Source: an uncultured bacterium
GTDB taxonomy: Bacteria; Verrucomicrobiota; Verrucomicrobiia; Limisphaerales; UBA8199
DNA length: 64,000 bases
Reading direction: 5' to 3'
NCBI GenBank assembly: GCA_963749495.1
Contig: CAVVMW010000021.1
Coordinates: 416,001-480,000, forward strand
A program made the position numbers. The stretch's first letter is position 1; the number at the start of each line of letters is the position of its first letter. Of the stretch, positions 24,001-30,000 are shown one piece after another.

Positions 24001-27000
24001 TCGCCGATTTCCAATCGGCAGGGCGTCGGCATATCGAGCGCCCCCGATTTGCCGACGGCCTGCGGGTTTGGAAACCCGCGATACGGCAGGTTTGGAAACC
24101 TGCGCTACGCTGGCGCCCCGGGGCGCACAGGCGCGCCGAGCGACTCTGTCAATGGCCCTGCCCCGTCCCTCGGCGGTCCCCACTTCTTGCTTGCGGCATG
24201 ACAAAACATGGCCGATGGTCCTTCACACTGGATAGGCACACACTTTATGAACGGCCCGGAGCTTTCGGTCCTCTTTTTCATGCAGATGTTCTGCATCCTG
24301 GCGGTCTGCCGCGGGGTGGGGGCGGTGGCGCGCCGGCTGGGCCAGCCGCAGGTGGTGGGGGAGATGGTTGCGGGGGTGTTCCTGGGGCCGTCCTTGCTGG
24401 GGCTGGTGTTGCCCGGACCGCAGCAGCAACTCTTTCCCGGAGAATCTTTGAAGTTCCTCTACATCGGGGCCCAGTTGGGCGTGGGTCTTTATATGTTCCT
24501 GGTGGGGGTGGAATTCAACAGGGAGACCTTTGCGAACCGGGCGCGGAGCGCTTTGACGATCTCGGCAGCCGGGATGGTTGCGCCGTTCCTCCTGGGCGCC
24601 GGGCTGGCGCTGGCTTTCTTCAAGGCCCCGGGCTTGTTTTCGACTCGGGCGACCCCGTTCGAGGCGATGCTCTTTTTGGGGGCGGCGATGTCGATTACGG
24701 CGTTCCCGATGCTCGCGCGGATCATCTATGAGCGCGGGTTGACGGGTTCGCCGCTGGGCACGCTGACTCTGGCAGCGGGAGCGCTTGGGGACGCGGGGGC
24801 GTGGTGCGTGCTGGCGATCGTGCTGGCCAGCTTCGGCGCAGGACCGGCGGTGGCGGTCAGGGCCATCGCGGGCGGGCTGGCTTACGGGGTCGGCGTGCTC
24901 ACCATTGGGCGGAGGCTCCTGGCCCGGCTCGGCGTGGCGGCGGAGCGTGCCGGCAGAATCACTCCCGGCCTGATGGCTCTTACCCTGATGCTCTTCCTGC
25001 TGGGGGCCTGCACCACCGATGCCATCGGCATTCATGCCGTGTTCGGCGGTTTCCTGCTCGGGGTGGCGATGCCGCGGGGGTTCTTCGCGCGCGAAATCCG
25101 GCGCCAACTCGAGCCGTTTGCCGTCGTCTTCCTCCTGCCGATGTTTTTCACTTTCTCCGGGCTCAACACCCGGCTCGACCTGCTGGTGAATCCGCAGATG
25201 TGCTGGATCGCTCTCGCCATCATCGCGGCGGCCTGCCTGGGCAAGGGGGGCGCCTGCTGGGCGGCAGCGCGGCTCGGTGGGGAGGACAACCGGACGGCCC
25301 TGGCGGTCGGCACCCTGATGAACGCGCGGGGCCTCATGGAGTTGATCCTCATCAACATCGGCCTCCAGCGAGGCATCATCCAGCCCGGGCTTTTCTCGAC
25401 CCTGGTCCTCATGGCCATCGTTACAACCCTAATGGCCTCGCCCGTCTTCGAGTGGGTCTATGGGCGCCACGCCCGCAAGAGCGAGGGCCTGAAAGTCATG
25501 CCCGCGGAGGCGTGAAGCAGGGGAGACCTTTGTCGCAGCCTTTGTCGAAACCTTTGTCGGACCGGCCATGTTGCGATTAGATTAGACCTTGGTTCATAAG
25601 TAATCGGACACGCATACACCTCGCACAAAAGCGGCAGAGGACTGCCGCACTCCAAAACGCTTCGCGAAGCAGGGATGCGGCCGAGGTCGCGCTAGCGTCT
25701 TGGAGTGCGGCAGTCCTCTGCCGCTTTTCCTCGCAAACCCAATCTCTAAGCCCGTGCCGAGGGGCAGAGATTCCTGTTGTTGACCTTCGATTTCTGGCTT
25801 CCTGTGAACGGAGACCTAACGACAAAGGCTGCGACAAAGGTTGCGACAAAGGTCCGGAGCTGGGGTTTTTGGGCCGCGCGTTACCTGAAGCGGGTTTGCT
25901 CGAAGCGCGCGTAATCCTTCATCATCTGCTCGGTGGCGCTGGGGGGGATGGTTTTCAGCGCGCACTCGATGTCCTCGGGGGTGAGCAGGTTGGAGCCGCC
26001 GCCGATCGCGCGGCGGAAGCCGGCCCGCTTGGCGCTTTGGATAATGGCGACGATGTCCGACCCGGTGTAGCCGTTGAGCCTCGGCGCCAGGGCCGGGGGG
26101 TTCACCGCCGCATCGACCGGGGCGGCGCCGAGCTGCTTCTTGAGCATGAACTCAATCGCCGGCTCATCGGGCAGGCCGACGAAGATCTTCTCGTCGAACC
26201 GGCCGGTGCGGAAGACGGCGTCATCGATGTCCCAGGGTTTATTGGTGGCGCCCAGCAGGAGCAGGACGTTGGGGGACTCGACGAATCCGCCGATCTCGGC
26301 CAGGAACTGGACGACCAGGCGGTTGTCCACCACGGAGTTGCCGCCCCGGCGCGGGAGCAGGCCGTCCACGTCATCCAGGAAGAGGACGCTGACCGCCTGG
26401 GAGCGTGCGGCCAGGATGAGCTTGCGCAGGCGCTGCTCGGATTCCCCATGCCATTTGCTGCGGATCTCGGCGCCGGTCGCGTAAAAAAAGGCCGCGTCCA
26501 ATTCCCCCGCCACCGCCTTGCCCAGGGTGGTTTTGCCGTTGCCCGGCGGGCCAAAAAGGAGCAGGCCGCCGCCGGCGCGGATGCCCCATTCCCTGGCCTT
26601 GTCCGGGTGCCGCATCGGTTCGATGACCATCTCATCCAGCTTGGTCTTGACATCGTCCATGCCAGCGATGTCGTTCAGACGCACGTTGGGCTTGTCGGTG
26701 ACCAGCCAGTCTTCGCTGCCCTCGGCCGCCTCCCCTTTGCCTGCGGGTTGGTCGCTCACCGGTTGGCGGGCCCGGCTGGACGAATCGGCGCCGGCGGCTT
26801 TGGCCTTCTGCTGCAACTCCTCGGCAATCTCGACCAGGTCTCGAGCCTCGGTCACAAAACCGCGCCGGATCCGGCCGTCGGTCTTGTCCGAGAGCTTGAG
26901 GGCGAACTCGGCCGCCTTGGCCATGTGGAAGGCCCCGCCTCGCAAATTGCCCTCCTGCATCGCCGTTTCGGCGGCGGCCGCATGTTCACGCTTTTTATCG

Positions 27001-30000
27001 GCATCGAAGCTCATTGTTCCTCCTTGGACCTCCTTGGTTCACCCGCATTAGGTCTCCAGCCTCAGCGCAAAGGTCATAATCGAGACATTGTAGGCAAAGG
27101 CCAGGCCCGCCAGCAGGAGGAACAACGCCGCCGAGAACCAGGACGAAAAGCCGACCTCAAGCATCACCAAGGCCATGAGGACATCGACAGCCAGGTAAAT
27201 CCCCAGCGTGAAGGCATTCGAGCGGTTCGACCCCTTGCGCACCATGGTGCGGATGAATGAGATGGTGAGGACCGGGAGCAGCAGGACGATGGCCGCCCAG
27301 ATGAAGAGCCGCCGCGCCCAGGCCATCCGCTGCACCGGCGCCGGCGGGTCCAGCGCCGCTACGGCGGCCGCCGCCGTTGCACCGGGCGCCCCGGGCTTGG
27401 TCTCGTTATTGTAATGGCGCGTGAAGACCGTATCGCCGCTGCCCACCTCGGCCAGAGTCAGGTCGAGGTCGAGCCTGGCGCCGCCCGGATAGGACTCGAA
27501 GCTGTTGATCTTGCCGAAGAGCACCCCCTGCGCCCCGGAGCCGCCGGCCTGACGCTGCGCCTGGCCCGGCTCGGTCGGCCCCTGGACGCGCAGGTGCAGG
27601 GCCTTGCGGAGCCTGTCCCAGAGCCGCTCCTGGCGCACGTCGAAGACGCCGCTCTGCTCCAGCGCCGAGCGCAAGTGGTCGCTGACATAATCGCTCGGGT
27701 CATTGGCCAGGTGCAGCAGGACGACCGACCCGACGGGGGCCTTGGCTTTGCGCAGGTCCTCGACGATGAGCGGGACCATTTCGTTTGCCGTCTGTTTGCG
27801 CAGCATCCCCACCTCGGGCTTCGTGGGGCCGATGTAAAACCAGCCCTGCAACAGCAGATAACCCGCCAGGGCGGCCACGCCCAGGAACACGAGCAATCTG
27901 AACAGCCAGGTTACCGGATGGCGAACGACGCTGACAGGGGTTTCATATAATGTTCTTAACATAGGCTCTCGCTTTCGCTCTTAGTGTTCATTGCCGTCGA
28001 TGATGCTCCGGGCCCGCCGCCGCAGGTCGGTGGTGTCCCCGGCCTCGGCCGTCTTTTGGACGGCCCCGCGTTCCCTGGAGGGCGATTCGCTCTCCTGCTG
28101 TGCGCCCACCTCGTCTTCGAGGTCCTTGAACATCTGGTCGATCGACGGGATGGTCTCGGCCATCGAGGTCTGGACCCCGTCCATCTCCTTGCCGTGCATC
28201 TTCTCCCAGAACGCGGTCGGTGTCCACCTGGTCGCCCAGCTTGTCCTCGACCTCGCCCAGCACGTCGGCTACGGAATCCGGATCGATCCTGACCACGGTG
28301 TTGATGGCCCCCAGGGCGCCGGAGAATTCCTGGTCGGTTTTGGCCATCTCCAGCTTGGCGAGCAATTGCTCGAAGACCCAGCGTTTCATCTCCAGCTTGG
28401 ACATCATCAACTCGCTGGCGCGGCAGGTCTGGAGGTTGCGCTGGGCGGCGGCCTTCTGGCCGTCCCGAAGGTAGCTCCGGGCATCGGCCCAGGCCTTGTC
28501 GCGGTCCGTCTTGAGCTTCTTGATGCGGTCCTTCACGGCATCCACCGCGCCCTCCGCCTCGCGAAAAGCCCTCCGCCGTCTGCTCCTGCCTTCGCGCTCG
28601 CGCTCTTGTCGGGATTTGAATAGGTCTTGAACGGCCATAACTTTGGTTCTTTCAGATTTTCTTGGGTTAATTGGTTGGTTTTGTCGCTCCGGGCCAGCTT
28701 TCAAACGCCTCGTTTCTGCGTGCAAGGGGATGTGACATTCTCAATCTCTTTTCCTTCCTCACTCCAGCTCCAATTGCTTGAGCAACTTCAAGTCGTCCTG
28801 CGAAAAATGGCGGGCGGCGCCGCCCTGCGCGGGCATCTCGTGGAGCTCGCCCTCGCTGTTTTCGGAGGCGAACACCGCCGGCTTGTGTTTGATCTTCTGC
28901 AAATCCGTGAGGGCCTCGTTGGCCTCCTCGACGCGGTCCAAGGCCTCCTCCAATTGCACCGCGATGGCATCCAGGTCCTCTCCTTTGACCCCGCGCCCAA
29001 TGGCGTTTTCCAATTCGCCGAGCTTTTCCAGGGCCATGGTGTTGGCCTCGATGCTCGCCAGCAGGAAATCGCCCGGCCCTTCCATCCGGCTCAACTGCCT
29101 CAAGTCCATCTGGATTTCCTTGGCCAGGAGCCTCTGGTTCAAACCGCCGGTCCGGTCGTACTTCGCCTTTTTGTCTCGAATCCGCTTTTCGTGCTGCGTG
29201 ATCTCCTCCCGCAGCCCGTCCAGGCGGTCCTGGTTGCCGGCGCGATTCCGGGCCAAGCTGTCCCTCCAGAGCCTCAACTGCTCCTTCTCCCCGGGCCGCA
29301 GCCCCAGCCCTCGAGCCAGGCGCGAAGCCACCGAACCGATAAAATCGCTAAAATTCTCCATGCATCTGTCCCTTCAATCACATTCAATGCCTTTTGAAAG
29401 ATCAGCCCGTTTGGACCACCGCCGGTGCCGCAGCCGCAACCGCAGCCGCCTTTCCTTACGGCGGAAAGCGGATTCCTATTCAGCGCGGCCGAGGATGGAG
29501 GAACCCCGGGGCCAATGTCGGGAGGCGCCCCAGGGCCGAAGGCCCGTCATGTGACAGCCCGGCCTGCAGCGGAGCGGAGGGCCGGGTAAGCCAGTGCCCG
29601 CGAAAACGGTCCCGGCCTGTAAGGCCGGGACCCTCTGCCCGAGGTCCCGAGCCTTGTTGCGCCCTTGCAGGGCGCGACCGATTGTCTCCCGATGACCTGG
29701 GCCTCCGCTCGCAAGCTCGCTCCAGCCCAGGCGCTCACATTTCGGGCTTTCAGCCCGAGCGAGGGCGCACCTTAGTACTACCGGACGCAAATACGGTGAC
29801 GTAGCGCAGACCTCCGAGTCTGCTGTATCGCCGACTTCCAAGTCGGCTGCGCGTCCGTGAAGGCACGCGCGTCCGCACCTCGGTTGGCCCGCAGGTTTGG
29901 AAACCTGCGAGACAGCAGACTCGGAGGTCTGCGCTACCCTGGCGGCGGCCCTGCCGCGCATCGAGGATACGTCATCGTATTTATGAAACGGCCCACTTAG

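Follow-up and report, generated by a model that had tools for sequence, protein, structure and literature searches.

Does this locus of an uncultured verrucomicrobial bacterium encode an ESCRT-III machine of the Snf7 type together with a Vps4-like ATPase? Current reviews hold that bacteria have no such pair. The window analysed here is a stretch of 64,000 nucleotides, and all coordinates refer to it.

Operon layout and distribution

The four adjacent same-strand genes reported by the first-pass annotation were all located, as four co-directional ORFs on the minus strand (g07807, g07806, g07805 and the ATPase gene). The features are as follows:

28759..29361, minus strand: Snf7A (g07807), 200 aa, helical (ORF)
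28638 down to 27981, minus strand: Snf7B (g07806), both frames (two-frame ORF)
28209..28638, minus strand: Snf7B first frame, residues 1-143, ESCRT-III core (Pfam Snf7, family profile)
27981..28208, minus strand: Snf7B second frame, WEKMHGKEMDGV...NEH, stop codon included (alignment with intact orthologues)
27048..27962, minus strand: TM304 (g07805), 304 aa, membrane protein (15-orthologue alignment)
25881-27014, minus strand: ATPase, 377 aa, whole ORF
26775..27014, minus strand: ATPase residues 1-80, predicted MIT-like three-helix bundle (AF2 and Foldseek)
25881..26774, minus strand: ATPase residues 81-377, linker of low complexity, then a single AAA+ cassette of the classical clade, stop included
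25631..25648, minus strand: terminator-like hairpin, then a T run (consensus scan)

The hairpin, which is likely the end of the operon, lies about 230 nt 3' of the ATPase stop codon and makes up one arm of an inverted repeat of 35 nt (25627-25661 / 25694-25728). The G+C content of the operon (0.60-0.67) equals that of its flanks. The module is minimal here, consisting of four genes without proteases, and its order is A-B-T-V (Snf7A-Snf7B-TM304-ATPase), while T-A-B-V and A-B-V-T occur elsewhere.

Among 52 non-redundant loci, the gene sets were ABTV (20), ABV (10), BV (10), BTV (6), B (4) and AB (2). Despite the varying order, the set is kept in records titled Verrucomicrobiota, Planctomycetota, Anaerolineales, Desulfobacteraceae and Hydrogenedentota, and the intact four-gene orthologues noted previously in other Verrucomicrobiota were found again. 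In 44 of the 45 loci where at least 300 nt follow Snf7B, the ATPase gene begins 4 nt ahead of the Snf7B stop; the sole exception is the locus described here. In nearly all loci, translation of Snf7B is thus coupled to that of a classical AAA+ ATPase with a single cassette, and Snf7B-like genes adjoin even ATPases of 32-54% identity. Since carriers are few (2 of 60 relatives, 11 of the 300 genomes sampled from the same phylum, and 2 of 300 in the phylum of genome G361), the module is no core machine of cell biology. Within one genus the ATPases fall into two deeply split clades, the protein here being 40% identical to that of locus L014 and 74% to that of L006. The module is accessory and horizontally spread.

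Snf7B belongs to the Snf7 branch

Pfam Snf7 scored the g07806 ORF above its cut-off, as had been claimed earlier (27.6 against 27.3 bits, E 2.7e-6), the match extending over residues 61-175 and model positions 10-129 of 171; helices 1 to 4 were assigned to the first frame by alignment to Snf7. In a six-frame search of the whole genome this locus was the single place above the cut-off, and none of 14 control genomes, Sulfolobus included, reached it, so the borderline score is no common chance event.

The family is conserved in bacteria at about 218 aa. An exhaustive search returned 190 clusters at E<=1e-3, almost all of about 210-220 aa, and the first frame is 70-86% identical to 120 database clusters among the matches listed. 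A profile built from 56 diverse members found yeast Snf7 (E 1.8e-11), Heimdallarchaeota ESCRT-IIIB (E 6.2e-8; positions 17-213 on 10-216 of 218, a full-length alignment in register) and a Vps20/32/60-like protein (E 2.9e-4), with CHMP3, Shrub, CHMP1B and CHMP2A as further matches, while PspA/Vipp1 was absent from all 31 rows matched. Likewise, 34 of the 56 representatives matched Pfam Snf7 at E<=0.01 (best 5.1e-11), the next Pfam family was matched by two, and PspA_IM30 by none. Its sequence places Snf7B within the ESCRT-III superfamily, in the Snf7 (CHMP4 / ESCRT-IIIB) branch, and the earlier assignment of g07806 to the Snf7 rather than the PspA/Vipp1 type holds.

The ATPase: Vps4-like or derived from Cdc48?

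The nucleotide site of the ATPase is intact by its sequence motifs (Walker A GPPGNGKT, Walker B FLDDVD) and its pore loop 1, SKWHGESE, is aromatic. Over 40 family members the pore loop K[YW][VH]GE is conserved, and Walker B ends in DE in 32 and in DD, as here, in 8. Pfam AAA matched residues 151-280 with 115.7 bits and AAA_lid_3 gave 23.7 bits, under its cut-off; Vps4_C gave no match in the ATPase at E<=1.

For the N-terminal domain, AF2 (25 sequences) predicted helices at residues 3-20, 24-42 and 48-80 with a pLDDT of 87.6. In a Foldseek search of 350,542 chains, the four best matches were all Vps4-family MIT domains: VPS4B/SKD1 (2cpt, E 0.14, prob 0.99), the Sulfolobus solfataricus Vps4-like protein (2w2u, E 0.2, 23% identity), 2v6y and 4u7y; none reached E<=1e-3. 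A VIA-align search with the same domain was not discriminating. No sequence model detected MIT, Pfam MIT matching none of the 25 N-domains. The MIT-like domain of the first-pass annotation thus stands as a predicted small three-helix fold, though not at the sequence level.

The best solved relatives of the ATPase are the D2 domains of VAT, Cdc48 and p97, the match to VAT D2 reaching 174.0 bits and extending to residue 374, in agreement with the caveat raised at the outset that the AAA domain is nearest to Cdc48/p97 D2. Among NCBIfam models, CDC48 outscored CdvC on the protein here (195.1 vs 178.6 bits) and was the top model for 10 of 11 family members, PAN being top for one, with CdvC second in six, third in three and fifth in two. 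It is therefore possible, although we lean against it, that the ATPase is a single-cassette derivative of the Cdc48 D2 type that gained its helical N-domain independently and works like the ESCRT-III/Vps4 pair, only the Snf7B gene being of archaeal-eukaryotic type and perhaps horizontally acquired. Both the missing Vps4_C match and the missing sequence-level MIT fit such a history, and since Vps4 itself probably descended from Cdc48, according to PMC10936438, a parallel origin is conceivable. However, the protein resembles CdvC in length (377 aa; the model has 370 positions) and in domain order. Alignment with the CdvC model is collinear, covering positions 8-365 of 370 in locus L009, N-domain included. 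The CDC48, CdvC and PAN models differ little in score, and the Foldseek matches of the N-domain argue for Vps4 instead. Atlas placed Vps4_C-bearing clusters next after the ATPase's own family (0.96), a closeness that serves as a lead only. The Vps4-like label given earlier thus fits the N-terminal fold and the domain order, but the AAA domain is not specifically Vps4-like.

Neighbourhoods and a possible role in conflict

The usual neighbours elsewhere are sensor-fused caspases, papain-like proteases (about 790 aa) or kinases. Flanks of 4 kb or more were available for 19 non-redundant loci; Peptidase_C14 genes were found in 13 of these, a member of the papain/CHAT BLAST cluster in 12, a DUF4384 protein in 3 and at least one of the three kinds in 16. 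The caspases are fused to Sel1, FGE-sulfatase, PEGA, GYF_2, TPR, Lcl_C, TMEM43 or Cpn60_TCP1. In L041, a diversity-generating retroelement (bAvd and reverse transcriptase) lies between caspase-PEGA-FGE genes; in L080, the Snf7B-ATPase pair is followed by two kinase-FGE-sulfatase proteins; and a member of the ~790-aa cluster ends at most 31 nt from the Snf7A start in 14 loci.

These protease-rich neighbourhoods strengthen the accessory or defence role suspected earlier. A narrower account would place the family primarily in an immune or cell-death system under protease or kinase control, as its effector or as a protective component. On sensing an invader or damage, the sensor-fused caspases, papain-like proteases or kinases would activate the Snf7-type polymer, for example by removing or modifying its autoinhibitory tail. 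Membrane scission, vesicle shedding or suicide would follow, and the ATPase would reset the system; housekeeping membrane repair would not be the function of the family. The patchy spread, the split ATPase clades and a match of the ATPase to the PADLOC IetA models (95.6 bits) also point this way. On the other hand, no such neighbours lie within several kb of the locus here, L006 or L038, no PADLOC model matches Snf7A, Snf7B or TM304, NCBIfam IteA reaches 90.3 bits against a cut-off of 510, and the phage and plasmid collections gave no match. Pfam Peptidase_C1 was found in only 6 of the 19 loci for the papain/CHAT cluster, and CHAT in one. Caspase-rich islands are common in these phyla, so protease adjacency may partly reflect island structure. 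On balance we find this account rather unlikely.

The frameshift in Snf7B

The frameshift claimed for g07806 is present in the assembly; the reads compared with it do not extend over the site. The frame switches after ...DTDRV, where orthologues read DTDRVWEKMHGKEM; DNA comparison with L017 and others gave GTTCTGGGAG here against GTCTGGGAG in L017, and the shift is therefore one extra T at 28210/28211. The second frame, which encodes an acidic helix, a variable linker and a C-terminal basic helix, matches by HMM with E 1.6e-19. The other 51 non-redundant loci have one Snf7B ORF each and no second-frame piece, and in 49 of them it measures at least 205 aa, the shorter ones lying at contig ends.

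Were the extra T real, the module would be a decaying remnant, with Snf7B lacking its tail and the operon non-functional. The unusual order, in which TM304 separates Snf7B from the ATPase and the 4-nt overlap is absent, would suit decay, as would the missing protease partners and the DD of Walker B. Yet the second frame retains 83% identity to P0001 (residues 143-217) and runs open as far as the usual stop codon, so that any break must be very recent; the remaining three genes are intact, and DD is shared by the 8 family members counted above. The assembly (31 contigs, 88% completeness) also has mutS, split over two frames, and RtcB in pieces, in line with the broken genes listed earlier, and an unrelated database protein, P0004, shifts at this very codon, a pattern suggestive of systematic error. 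An assembly error is more likely than decay, and a remnant at this locus seems improbable.

Snf7A, TM304 and the tails

Snf7A was found in 32 of the 52 loci. Its family motif is LSxxTxxRLKQLE (FSQDDLKLLKQLELE here), and the AF2 model (31 sequences, pLDDT 80.9) has helices at residues 2-16, 23-70, 73-123, 128-157 and 188-199, with disorder at 159-180. The topology is ESCRT-III-like and the C-terminal helix is conserved. Searches gave no meaningful Pfam family, no PDB sequence match and no detectable homology to Snf7B or any solved ESCRT-III protein (hhalign probability 2.1% and 1.6%). Fold searches were non-specific and without a significant ESCRT-III match, the best being designed helical bundles (Z 12.3), with IST1 at rank 48 (Z 8.8). 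Of the two ESCRT-III-like proteins proposed earlier, g07806 is upheld by the Snf7 profile, but g07807 is weakly supported, by its modelled helix topology. That the Snf7 likeness is a coiled-coil artefact, with unrelated helical proteins beside a generic AAA chaperone, might be argued from Snf7A and from the borderline scores of Snf7B here (Pfam as above, PDB E 0.0038), but is very improbable given the profile match to yeast Snf7, the in-register alignment with ESCRT-IIIB, matches to ESCRT-III proteins of several subfamilies rather than assorted coiled coils, and the 34 to 2 lead of Snf7 in Pfam.

Both Snf7 proteins end in a linker and a short conserved helix with an RL[KR]xL core, present in the last 22 residues of 20 of 30 Snf7A and 35 of 50 Snf7B sequences. 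When the MIT-like domain was modelled in complex with the Snf7B tail, the prediction scored 0.47 (best control 0.01), with at least 59% of contacts in agreement between runs and a partner pLDDT of at least 52. Of 157 solved complexes, 116 passed the mark applied, as did 2 of 215 mismatched pairs; scores of 0.60 or under account for only 18 of the 157 and for both mismatches that passed. The prediction lends weak support to a contact; since MIT-MIM complexes are already solved, the pass may reflect likeness only.

TM304 is present in 26 of the 52 loci, before or after the other module genes. Judged from its charge distribution, it begins with one TM helix, continues with about 150 aa of soluble domain and closes with three further TM helices, which carry the conserved basic loop MVRKxSNRxNA. 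Pfam LpoB matched 7 of 15 members (best E 1.4e-4) and the top PDB matches were LpoB chains, weak at E 0.089-0.48; the soluble domain is weakly LpoB-like and probably periplasmic.

Proposed mechanism and comparison with known systems

Taken together, sequence and models make it fairly probable that the product of this bacterial operon is an ESCRT-III machine with a Vps4-like ATPase. The module is real, and a Snf7-type ESCRT-III protein with a Vps4-style ATPase in one bacterial operon is new, being the pairing that the reviews call absent from bacteria. The novelty first claimed is narrower in one respect: the supplement of PMC11237479 already lists bacterial genes for MIT with a Vps4-like AAA, one verrucomicrobium included, with snf7 displaced in those bacteria.

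In the machine proposed, Snf7B, probably with Snf7A as its partner, would polymerise on the inner membrane from the cytoplasmic side, touching it through a short hydrophobic N-terminal motif and a basic stretch. A hexamer of the ATPase would dock via its MIT-like domain on the C-terminal helices and thread subunits through its pore, so that the polymer is remodelled or recycled, leading to membrane repair, scission or vesiculation. Because protease or kinase operons accompany it in most other genomes, the module probably supplies the membrane component of a regulated response to stress or conflict. TM304, a four-helix inner-membrane protein, may act as nucleator or sensor, a role comparable to that of PspB/C for PspA and of CdvA for CdvB.

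Layout of the operon and its surroundings

The four genes singled out by the first-pass annotation were seen as co-directional open reading frames on the minus strand, arranged head to tail with intergenic gaps of approximately 120, 18 and 33 nt.

28759-29361, minus strand: Snf7A (g07807), ORF of 200 aa
28638 (ATG) to 27981 (stop), minus strand: Snf7B (g07806), read in two reading frames
27048-27962, minus strand: TM304 (g07805), ORF of 304 aa
25881-27014, minus strand: ATPase (g07804), ORF of 377 aa
25631-25648: terminator-like hairpin, 3' of the ATPase gene

The G+C content of the operon is that of its flanks. 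A few kb away lie genes for a DndB-like protein (22701-24032, minus strand; PF14072, E 2.2e-9) and for an ATPase with AAA_14 and DUF4143 (20448-21704, plus strand), which may be defence-island neighbours. On the other side, a GH127 arabinofuranosidase ORF (29997-32057, minus strand) overlaps an ORF of the same strand (31853-32701) with a signal-peptide-like start, and the pair may represent a further frameshifted gene.

Two kinds of repeats were seen around these genes. A palindromic element of approximately 140-150 nt with 42-nt arms is present in two copies (23973-24109 and 29800-29944, 80-83% alike), which flank a Na+/H+ exchanger gene together with the four-gene operon. The element is dispersed, with at least 40 copies at 93-97% identity in the same genome (164 first-look candidates), and an interpretation of the two copies as the mark of a mobile cassette was not adopted for this reason. 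Arrays of the 12-nt unit CCTTTGTCGNAN (9 matches against 0 expected) are located at 22510-22602, 25527-25559 and 25820-25852, directly 3' of the DndB-like, exchanger and ATPase genes. The last of these arrays is also matched by short metagenome contigs (25820-25858).

The Snf7B family

The Snf7B ORF of the window scored 27.6 bits against Pfam Snf7 (PF03357; cut-off 27.3). When all six frames of the 11.4-Mb genome were searched, the window site (27.9 bits) was the sole place over the cut-off, which was reached by none of 14 control genomes. A word-indexed search with Snf7B gave 353 clusters at E ≤ 1e-3, the 120 listed sharing 66-86% identity over the unshifted part and being mostly 215-220 aa long, and an exhaustive search with a 20-sequence profile gave 190 clusters (50% identity) at E ≤ 1e-3, 144 at E ≤ 1e-10 and 63 at E ≤ 1e-30. 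In an alignment of 56 members, taken as every second of 111 listed representatives of 195-245 aa, Pfam Snf7 was matched by 34 proteins at E ≤ 0.01 (best 5.1e-11) and the next family by two, while PspA_IM30 (PF04012) was matched by none of the 56.

The profile of these 56 proteins found yeast Snf7 (1.8e-11) in the PDB, as well as ESCRT-IIIB of Heimdallarchaeota (6.2e-8), aligned end to end. Lower matches of the same search were a Vps20/32/60-like protein (2.9e-4), CHMP3 (1.8e-3), Shrub (2e-3), CHMP1B (7e-3) and CHMP2A (0.046), and PspA and Vipp1 were absent from its 31 PDB rows. A narrower Snf7B profile reached Snf7 at 1.6e-4, and the window protein alone at 0.0038. The alignment register with solved Snf7, taken by itself, would give the protein a helical hairpin (helices 1-2/3), a helix 4 and a folded-back tail. 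Judged by sequence, Snf7B is a Snf7-type ESCRT-III protein and not one of the PspA/Vipp1 type; the first-pass assignment of g07806 is borne out by the score over the Pfam cut-off, the Snf7 matches across the family and the profile matches to solved ESCRT-III proteins.

Two tandem Snf7B-like genes (E 3.3e-64 and 2.2e-64) were observed in another genome of the phylum, at G328:C52:10440-12412.

The frameshift in Snf7B

Orthologues of Snf7B read ...DTDRVWEKMHGKEM, and the window protein leaves this frame after DTDRV, the next frame running to the normal end with 83% identity to a database orthologue (P0001). At the DNA level, GTTCTGGGAG in the window stands against GTCTGGGAG in a compared locus (L017), which corresponds to one extra T in the window. 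A single-frame Snf7B ORF was found in each of the other 51 non-redundant loci, with a length of at least 205 aa in 49 of them and the shorter ones situated at contig ends.

The frameshift is probably an assembly error. Single-base indels seem to be frequent in this assembly: mutS is split over two frames (G000:C1:147045-149668; model positions 1-363 and 374-804) and the RtcB copies are in pieces. In a second orthologue (P0004), encoded on an unrelated 375-kb contig, the frame breaks at the very codon affected in the window (DTDKI-LGED...), which could reflect a systematic sequencing error or a mutational hotspot. Public metagenome data (three DNA runs of one study, with no RNA run listed) yielded identical short contigs at 26649-26866, 26925-27107 and 29358-29500, at low depth and with nothing informative over position 28210. 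A programmed frameshift at GTT-C-TGG was rejected, as the site is without a slippery or hungry codon context; the single-frame genes of the other 51 loci and the splitting of other genes in the assembly also disfavour it.

The ATPase

The AAA part of the ATPase is a single cassette of the classical clade (Pfam AAA, 115.7 bits), with the Walker A motif GPPGNGKT, an aromatic pore loop K[YW][VH]GE and a conserved R..GR (arginine fingers, second region of homology). Walker B is DE in 32 of 40 family members and DD in the remaining eight, among them the window protein. The closest solved relatives of this part are the D2 cassettes of VAT (174.0 bits), Cdc48 and p97, and the window protein scored 195.1 bits on the NCBIfam CDC48 model. 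Over 11 family members, CDC48 was the top NCBIfam model in 10 and PAN in one, and CdvC came second in six, third in three and fifth in two, with small gaps between the scores. One member aligned to positions 8-365 of the 370 of the CdvC model. Vps4_C (PF09336) was not among the 16 families matched at E ≤ 1.

Outside the AAA core, residues ~1-70 are the best conserved stretch. By sequence this N-domain gave weak, noise-like matches to Sel1, HEPN and TPR-like families only; MIT (PF04212) was matched by none of 25 N-domains at E ≤ 10, and the N-domain profile found no MIT chain in the PDB. When modelled alone with AF2 (25 sequences), the domain formed three helices (pLDDT 87.6). The top four Foldseek matches among 350,542 chains were the MIT domain of VPS4B/SKD1, the MIT domain of the S. 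solfataricus Vps4-like protein with CdvB, the same domain alone, and the VPS4B MIT domain with IST1, with probabilities of 0.98-0.99 but E-values of 0.14-0.36. These were followed by the MIT domains of NRBF2, VPS4A, ULK3, calpain-7 and MITD1, the E-values ranging from 0.14 to 1.5 overall. VIA-align matches covering all three helices included 2w2u_B (Z 7.1, 69 aa), MITD1 (Z 6.8) and the VPS4A MIT domain (Z 6.6), amid many helical hairpins. Elsewhere in the compared loci, an MIT-like domain was found in ATPase fragments only.

The three-helix N-domain, the single cassette and the collinear alignment to CdvC together give the protein the architecture of CdvC/Vps4; a tree would be needed to assign the cassette itself. 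The first-pass description of a Vps4-like MIT-AAA protein accordingly stands in part: the single cassette and the three-helix N-domain were recovered, whereas neither MIT nor Vps4_C was detected by sequence and CDC48 outscored CdvC.

Snf7A and the membrane protein TM304

Snf7A orthologues were taken from the fetched loci, a profile search in which the 8000 word-richest candidates were scored having given five proteins. The family is real, being present in 32 of the 52 non-redundant loci at 22-42% identity. The first-pass annotation had regarded g07807 as a second ESCRT-III protein, for which sequence and profile comparisons gave no homology: there was no useful Pfam match, Snf7 and PspA included, no match in the PDB with either the single sequence or the profile, and hhalign probabilities of 2.1% and 1.6% between the Snf7A and Snf7B profiles. 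A protein-language search (Atlas) returned sub-threshold leads only (Snf7 0.86, PspA_IM30 0.82).

The AF2 model of Snf7A (31 sequences, pLDDT 80.9) consists of a short helix 0, a hairpin of 48 and 51 residues, a helix 4, a disordered acidic linker and a terminal helix, and this predicted order of elements resembles that of ESCRT-III. With the model as query, Foldseek returned nothing at E ≤ 1e-3, with CdvB2 at rank 4 (E 0.11), CdvB at rank 27 and ESCRT-IIIB at rank 42 amid designed bundles, and VIA-align (48,161 chains) placed designed four-helix bundles at the top (Z 12.3) and IST1 at rank 48 (Z 8.8). Since helical bundles and hairpins dominate the VIA-align results for both Snf7A and the ATPase N-domain, this comparison does not discriminate.

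Fifteen aligned TM304 orthologues share an N-terminal transmembrane helix, a soluble domain, three C-terminal transmembrane helices and a conserved basic loop. Pfam LpoB was found in seven of the 15 (best E 1.4e-4), the window protein being a weak match, and LpoB chains were the top but weak PDB matches. From the distribution of charges, we infer that the N-terminus would lie inside, the LpoB-like domain in the periplasm and the basic loop in the cytoplasm.

Tails and predicted docking

Both Snf7A and Snf7B end in a variable linker followed by a short conserved helix. The motif RL[KR]xL occurs within the last 22 residues of 20 of 30 Snf7A and 35 of 50 Snf7B proteins, and the Snf7B subgroup of the window carries the related basic motif R(A/R)RARxII in its place. 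The core consensus of MIM1 is RLxxL, which the tail motif resembles.

Modelled as a complex, the MIT-like domain and the Snf7B tail scored 0.47, against 0.01 for the best control. Of 157 solved complexes and 215 mismatched pairs, 116 and two, respectively, reached the mark; a passing score of 0.60 or under, as here, was given by 18 of the solved complexes and by both of the mismatched pairs that passed. Contact agreement between runs was at least 59% and the partner pLDDT at least 52. The model lends weak support to docking of the MIT-like domain on the Snf7B tail, and, as solved MIT-MIM complexes exist, it may reflect likeness only.

Linkage of Snf7B and ATPase and their gene neighbours

The compared loci comprised 10 from species genomes, two from relatives, 53 metagenomic ones and the window, 66 in all, of which 52 were non-redundant at 95% Snf7B identity. 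Forty-five non-redundant loci extend for 300 nt or more beyond Snf7B, and in 44 of them the start codon of the ATPase gene is found 4 nt ahead of the Snf7B stop. The sole exception is the window, where TM304 is situated between the two genes in the same operon. With A, B, T and V standing for Snf7A, Snf7B, TM304 and the ATPase, the gene sets of the 52 loci were ABTV (20), ABV (10), BV (10), BTV (6), B (4) and AB (2), many of the contigs being short, and the genes were ordered T-A-B-V or A-B-V-T. By record title, the carriers belong to Verrucomicrobiota (3), Phycisphaerae (2), Planctomycetaceae, Planctomycetia, Anaerolineales, Desulfobacteraceae and Hydrogenedentota.

The neighbourhoods were scanned over 167 flanking ORFs of at least 110 aa; ten window ORFs were left out, three of which were scanned separately with Pfam. 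Caspase genes (Peptidase_C14) were found at 20 of the 52 loci; of the 19 loci flanked by 4 kb or more, 13 have them. They are usually co-directional and often in several copies, and were fused to Sel1, FGE-sulfatase, PEGA, GYF_2, TPR, Lcl_C, TMEM43 or Cpn60_TCP1 domains. A BLAST cluster of proteins of up to ~800 aa was present at 19 loci, ending no more than 31 nt from the Snf7A start in 14; Pfam detected Peptidase_C1 in six of these 19 loci and CHAT in one. DUF4384 proteins were found at five loci. Taken together, protease-type neighbours occur at 16 of these 19 well-flanked loci, and none was seen at the window, L006 or L038.

Two loci have further partners of a distinct kind. At L041 (3010-4769 and flanks), a diversity-generating retroelement (bAvd and reverse transcriptase) lies between two caspase-PEGA-FGE-sulfatase genes, and this region adjoins the genes for Snf7B, ATPase and TM304. 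The operon at L080 (3340-15229), in genome G257, encodes, in this order, a protein with a zinc ribbon and SPFH/Band 7, a 497-aa unknown protein, a Snf7B-like protein, the ATPase and two Ser/Thr kinase-FGE-sulfatase proteins, one of which also contains Yip1.

Two individual neighbours may be recorded on their own account. One is a caspase fused to a full Cpn60/TCP-1 chaperonin domain (L041:9802-12261, E 9e-42), and the other a small protein among the caspase genes of L009 (9129-9701) with a FYVE zinc finger (30.2 bits against a cut-off of 27.8, E 4.8e-7), a domain that binds endosomal lipids in eukaryotes.

Distribution and transfer

Two of 60 relatives, which share one genus, carry Snf7B, as do 11 of 300 further genomes sampled from the window's phylum and two of 300 further ones from the phylum of genome G361. 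With the ATPase as query, nine genomes out of a phylum sample of 300 gave matches at E ≤ 1e-55. No match to Snf7B was obtained in plasmid or phage collections. The ATPase tree has two deep clades: the window protein is 74% identical to that of L006 and 40% identical to that of L014, which comes from a genome of the window's own genus, while Snf7B identity is 58-86% throughout. ATPases of merely 32-38% identity still adjoin Snf7B-like and Snf7A-like genes. These are accessory genes that have moved from one lineage to another.

Interpretation and significance

The observation of the first-pass annotation is confirmed, and the core of its reading, a bacterial Snf7-type ESCRT-III protein coupled to an MIT-like AAA ATPase, holds. 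The LpoB-like membrane partner and the protease, kinase and sensor neighbours point to a regulated membrane response and not to a core division or trafficking machine.

The prevailing division by domain of life, as drawn in PMC8281802, assigns PspA/Vipp1 without Vps4 to bacteria, and Snf7/CdvB with Vps4 to archaea and eukaryotes; according to PMC7619361, an ATPase of the Vps4 kind "appears absent in bacteria". A conserved bacterial operon joining both parts breaks that division of ESCRT-III. It now becomes possible to address whether the pairing of Snf7 and Vps4 had a single origin and in which direction transfer between domains took place, as well as what the job of an ESCRT polymer is in a peptidoglycan-walled cell and in the unusual envelopes of these phyla. 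The bacterial module is small and probably tractable, given that the genome of one carrier (G257) is complete in a single contig. For any ESCRT-III, the association with caspases, papain-like proteases, kinases and a diversity-generating retroelement is a new setting.

A more far-reaching reading, which we consider rather unlikely, is that bacteria possess a true ESCRT module, consisting of a Snf7-type polymer and an MIT-AAA disassemblase, that is connected to sensors resembling those of innate immunity. The polymer would be gated via autoinhibitory tails by caspases, papain-like proteases and kinases, the receptor domains fused to these enzymes (Sel1 or FGE-sulfatase) would in some cases be diversified by a retroelement, and the output would be membrane scission, vesicle shedding or repair in an immune or cell-death pathway. 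If true, this would be a prokaryotic counterpart of the axis between ESCRT-III and pore-forming death in animals. Under such immune gating, the depth of the split between ATPase clades of ~40% identity, set against the slow evolution of Snf7B, would speak for a bacterial lineage of great age, which, if true, would bear on the origin of Vps4 from Cdc48-like ATPases.

Comparison with known systems

The full-text literature search, with preprint supplements outside its scope, returned no description of the gene set, the nearest being the supplement of PMC11237479. A term search of PMC7159879, which treats caspase-centred conflict systems, was without ESCRT, Vps4, "MIT domain" or CDC48. Among the PADLOC models, Snf7A, a Snf7B orthologue and TM304 had no matches, and the ATPase alone matched (IetA, 95.6 bits). 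IetA, of the anti-phage system IetAS, is likewise a single AAA ATPase working with a protease; the NCBIfam IteA score, however, was 90.3 bits against a cut-off of 510, the match being to the generic AAA core, and no IetS-type partner was seen.

Cdc48, VAT and p97 provide the top sequence match of the AAA part through their D2 cassettes, yet the bacterial ATPase has one cassette and not two, is only ~375 aa long, and has an MIT-like N-domain in place of the double-psi barrel. PMC11237479 describes bacterial genes for MIT+Vps4-AAA proteins in several phyla, including Verrucomicrobia and Planctomycetes, with snf7 "displaced" by a TPR-6TM gene, and bacterial Snf7 proteins with a signal peptide and a transmembrane segment beside two-cassette AAA proteins. 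In the present family, a soluble Snf7-type gene overlaps an MIT-like AAA gene.

The bacterial polymers PspA and Vipp1 (IM30) belong to the same ESCRT-III superfamily, and an accessory role in membrane stress is plausible for both systems. By analogy with PspB/C and PspA, the small membrane partner may recruit the polymer. In contrast to PspA/Vipp1, the partner ATPase is a classical-clade translocase with an MIT-like domain, as opposed to the sigma-54 activator PspF.

Close known counterparts are the ESCRT-III and Vps4 proteins of archaea and eukaryotes, i.e. CdvB/CdvC of Thermoproteota, ESCRT-IIIA/B with Vps4 of Asgard archaea, and Snf7/CHMP4 with Vps4 of eukaryotes. The present system differs from these in its bacterial host, in that MIT and Vps4_C are undetectable by sequence, in that the AAA cassette scores no nearer to CdvC than to the D2 of CDC48, and in its additional components, namely a membrane protein of its own, with four helices and an LpoB-like domain, and caspases, papain-like proteases or kinases as frequent partners; genes for ESCRT-I, ESCRT-II, winged-helix proteins or CdvA were not seen in the scanned neighbourhoods. 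In common with them, the bacterial operon has a sequence-detectable Snf7-type subunit, the gene for a second helical subunit beside it, an adjacent single-cassette AAA ATPase of ~375 aa with an MIT-like three-helix bundle, a linker and an aromatic pore loop, and short C-terminal helices past a flexible linker in the subunits. The zinc-ribbon and SPFH/Band 7 gene of L080 adds a further likeness, since PMC10936438 describes the combination of SPFH and zinc ribbon in an archaeal ESCRT type.
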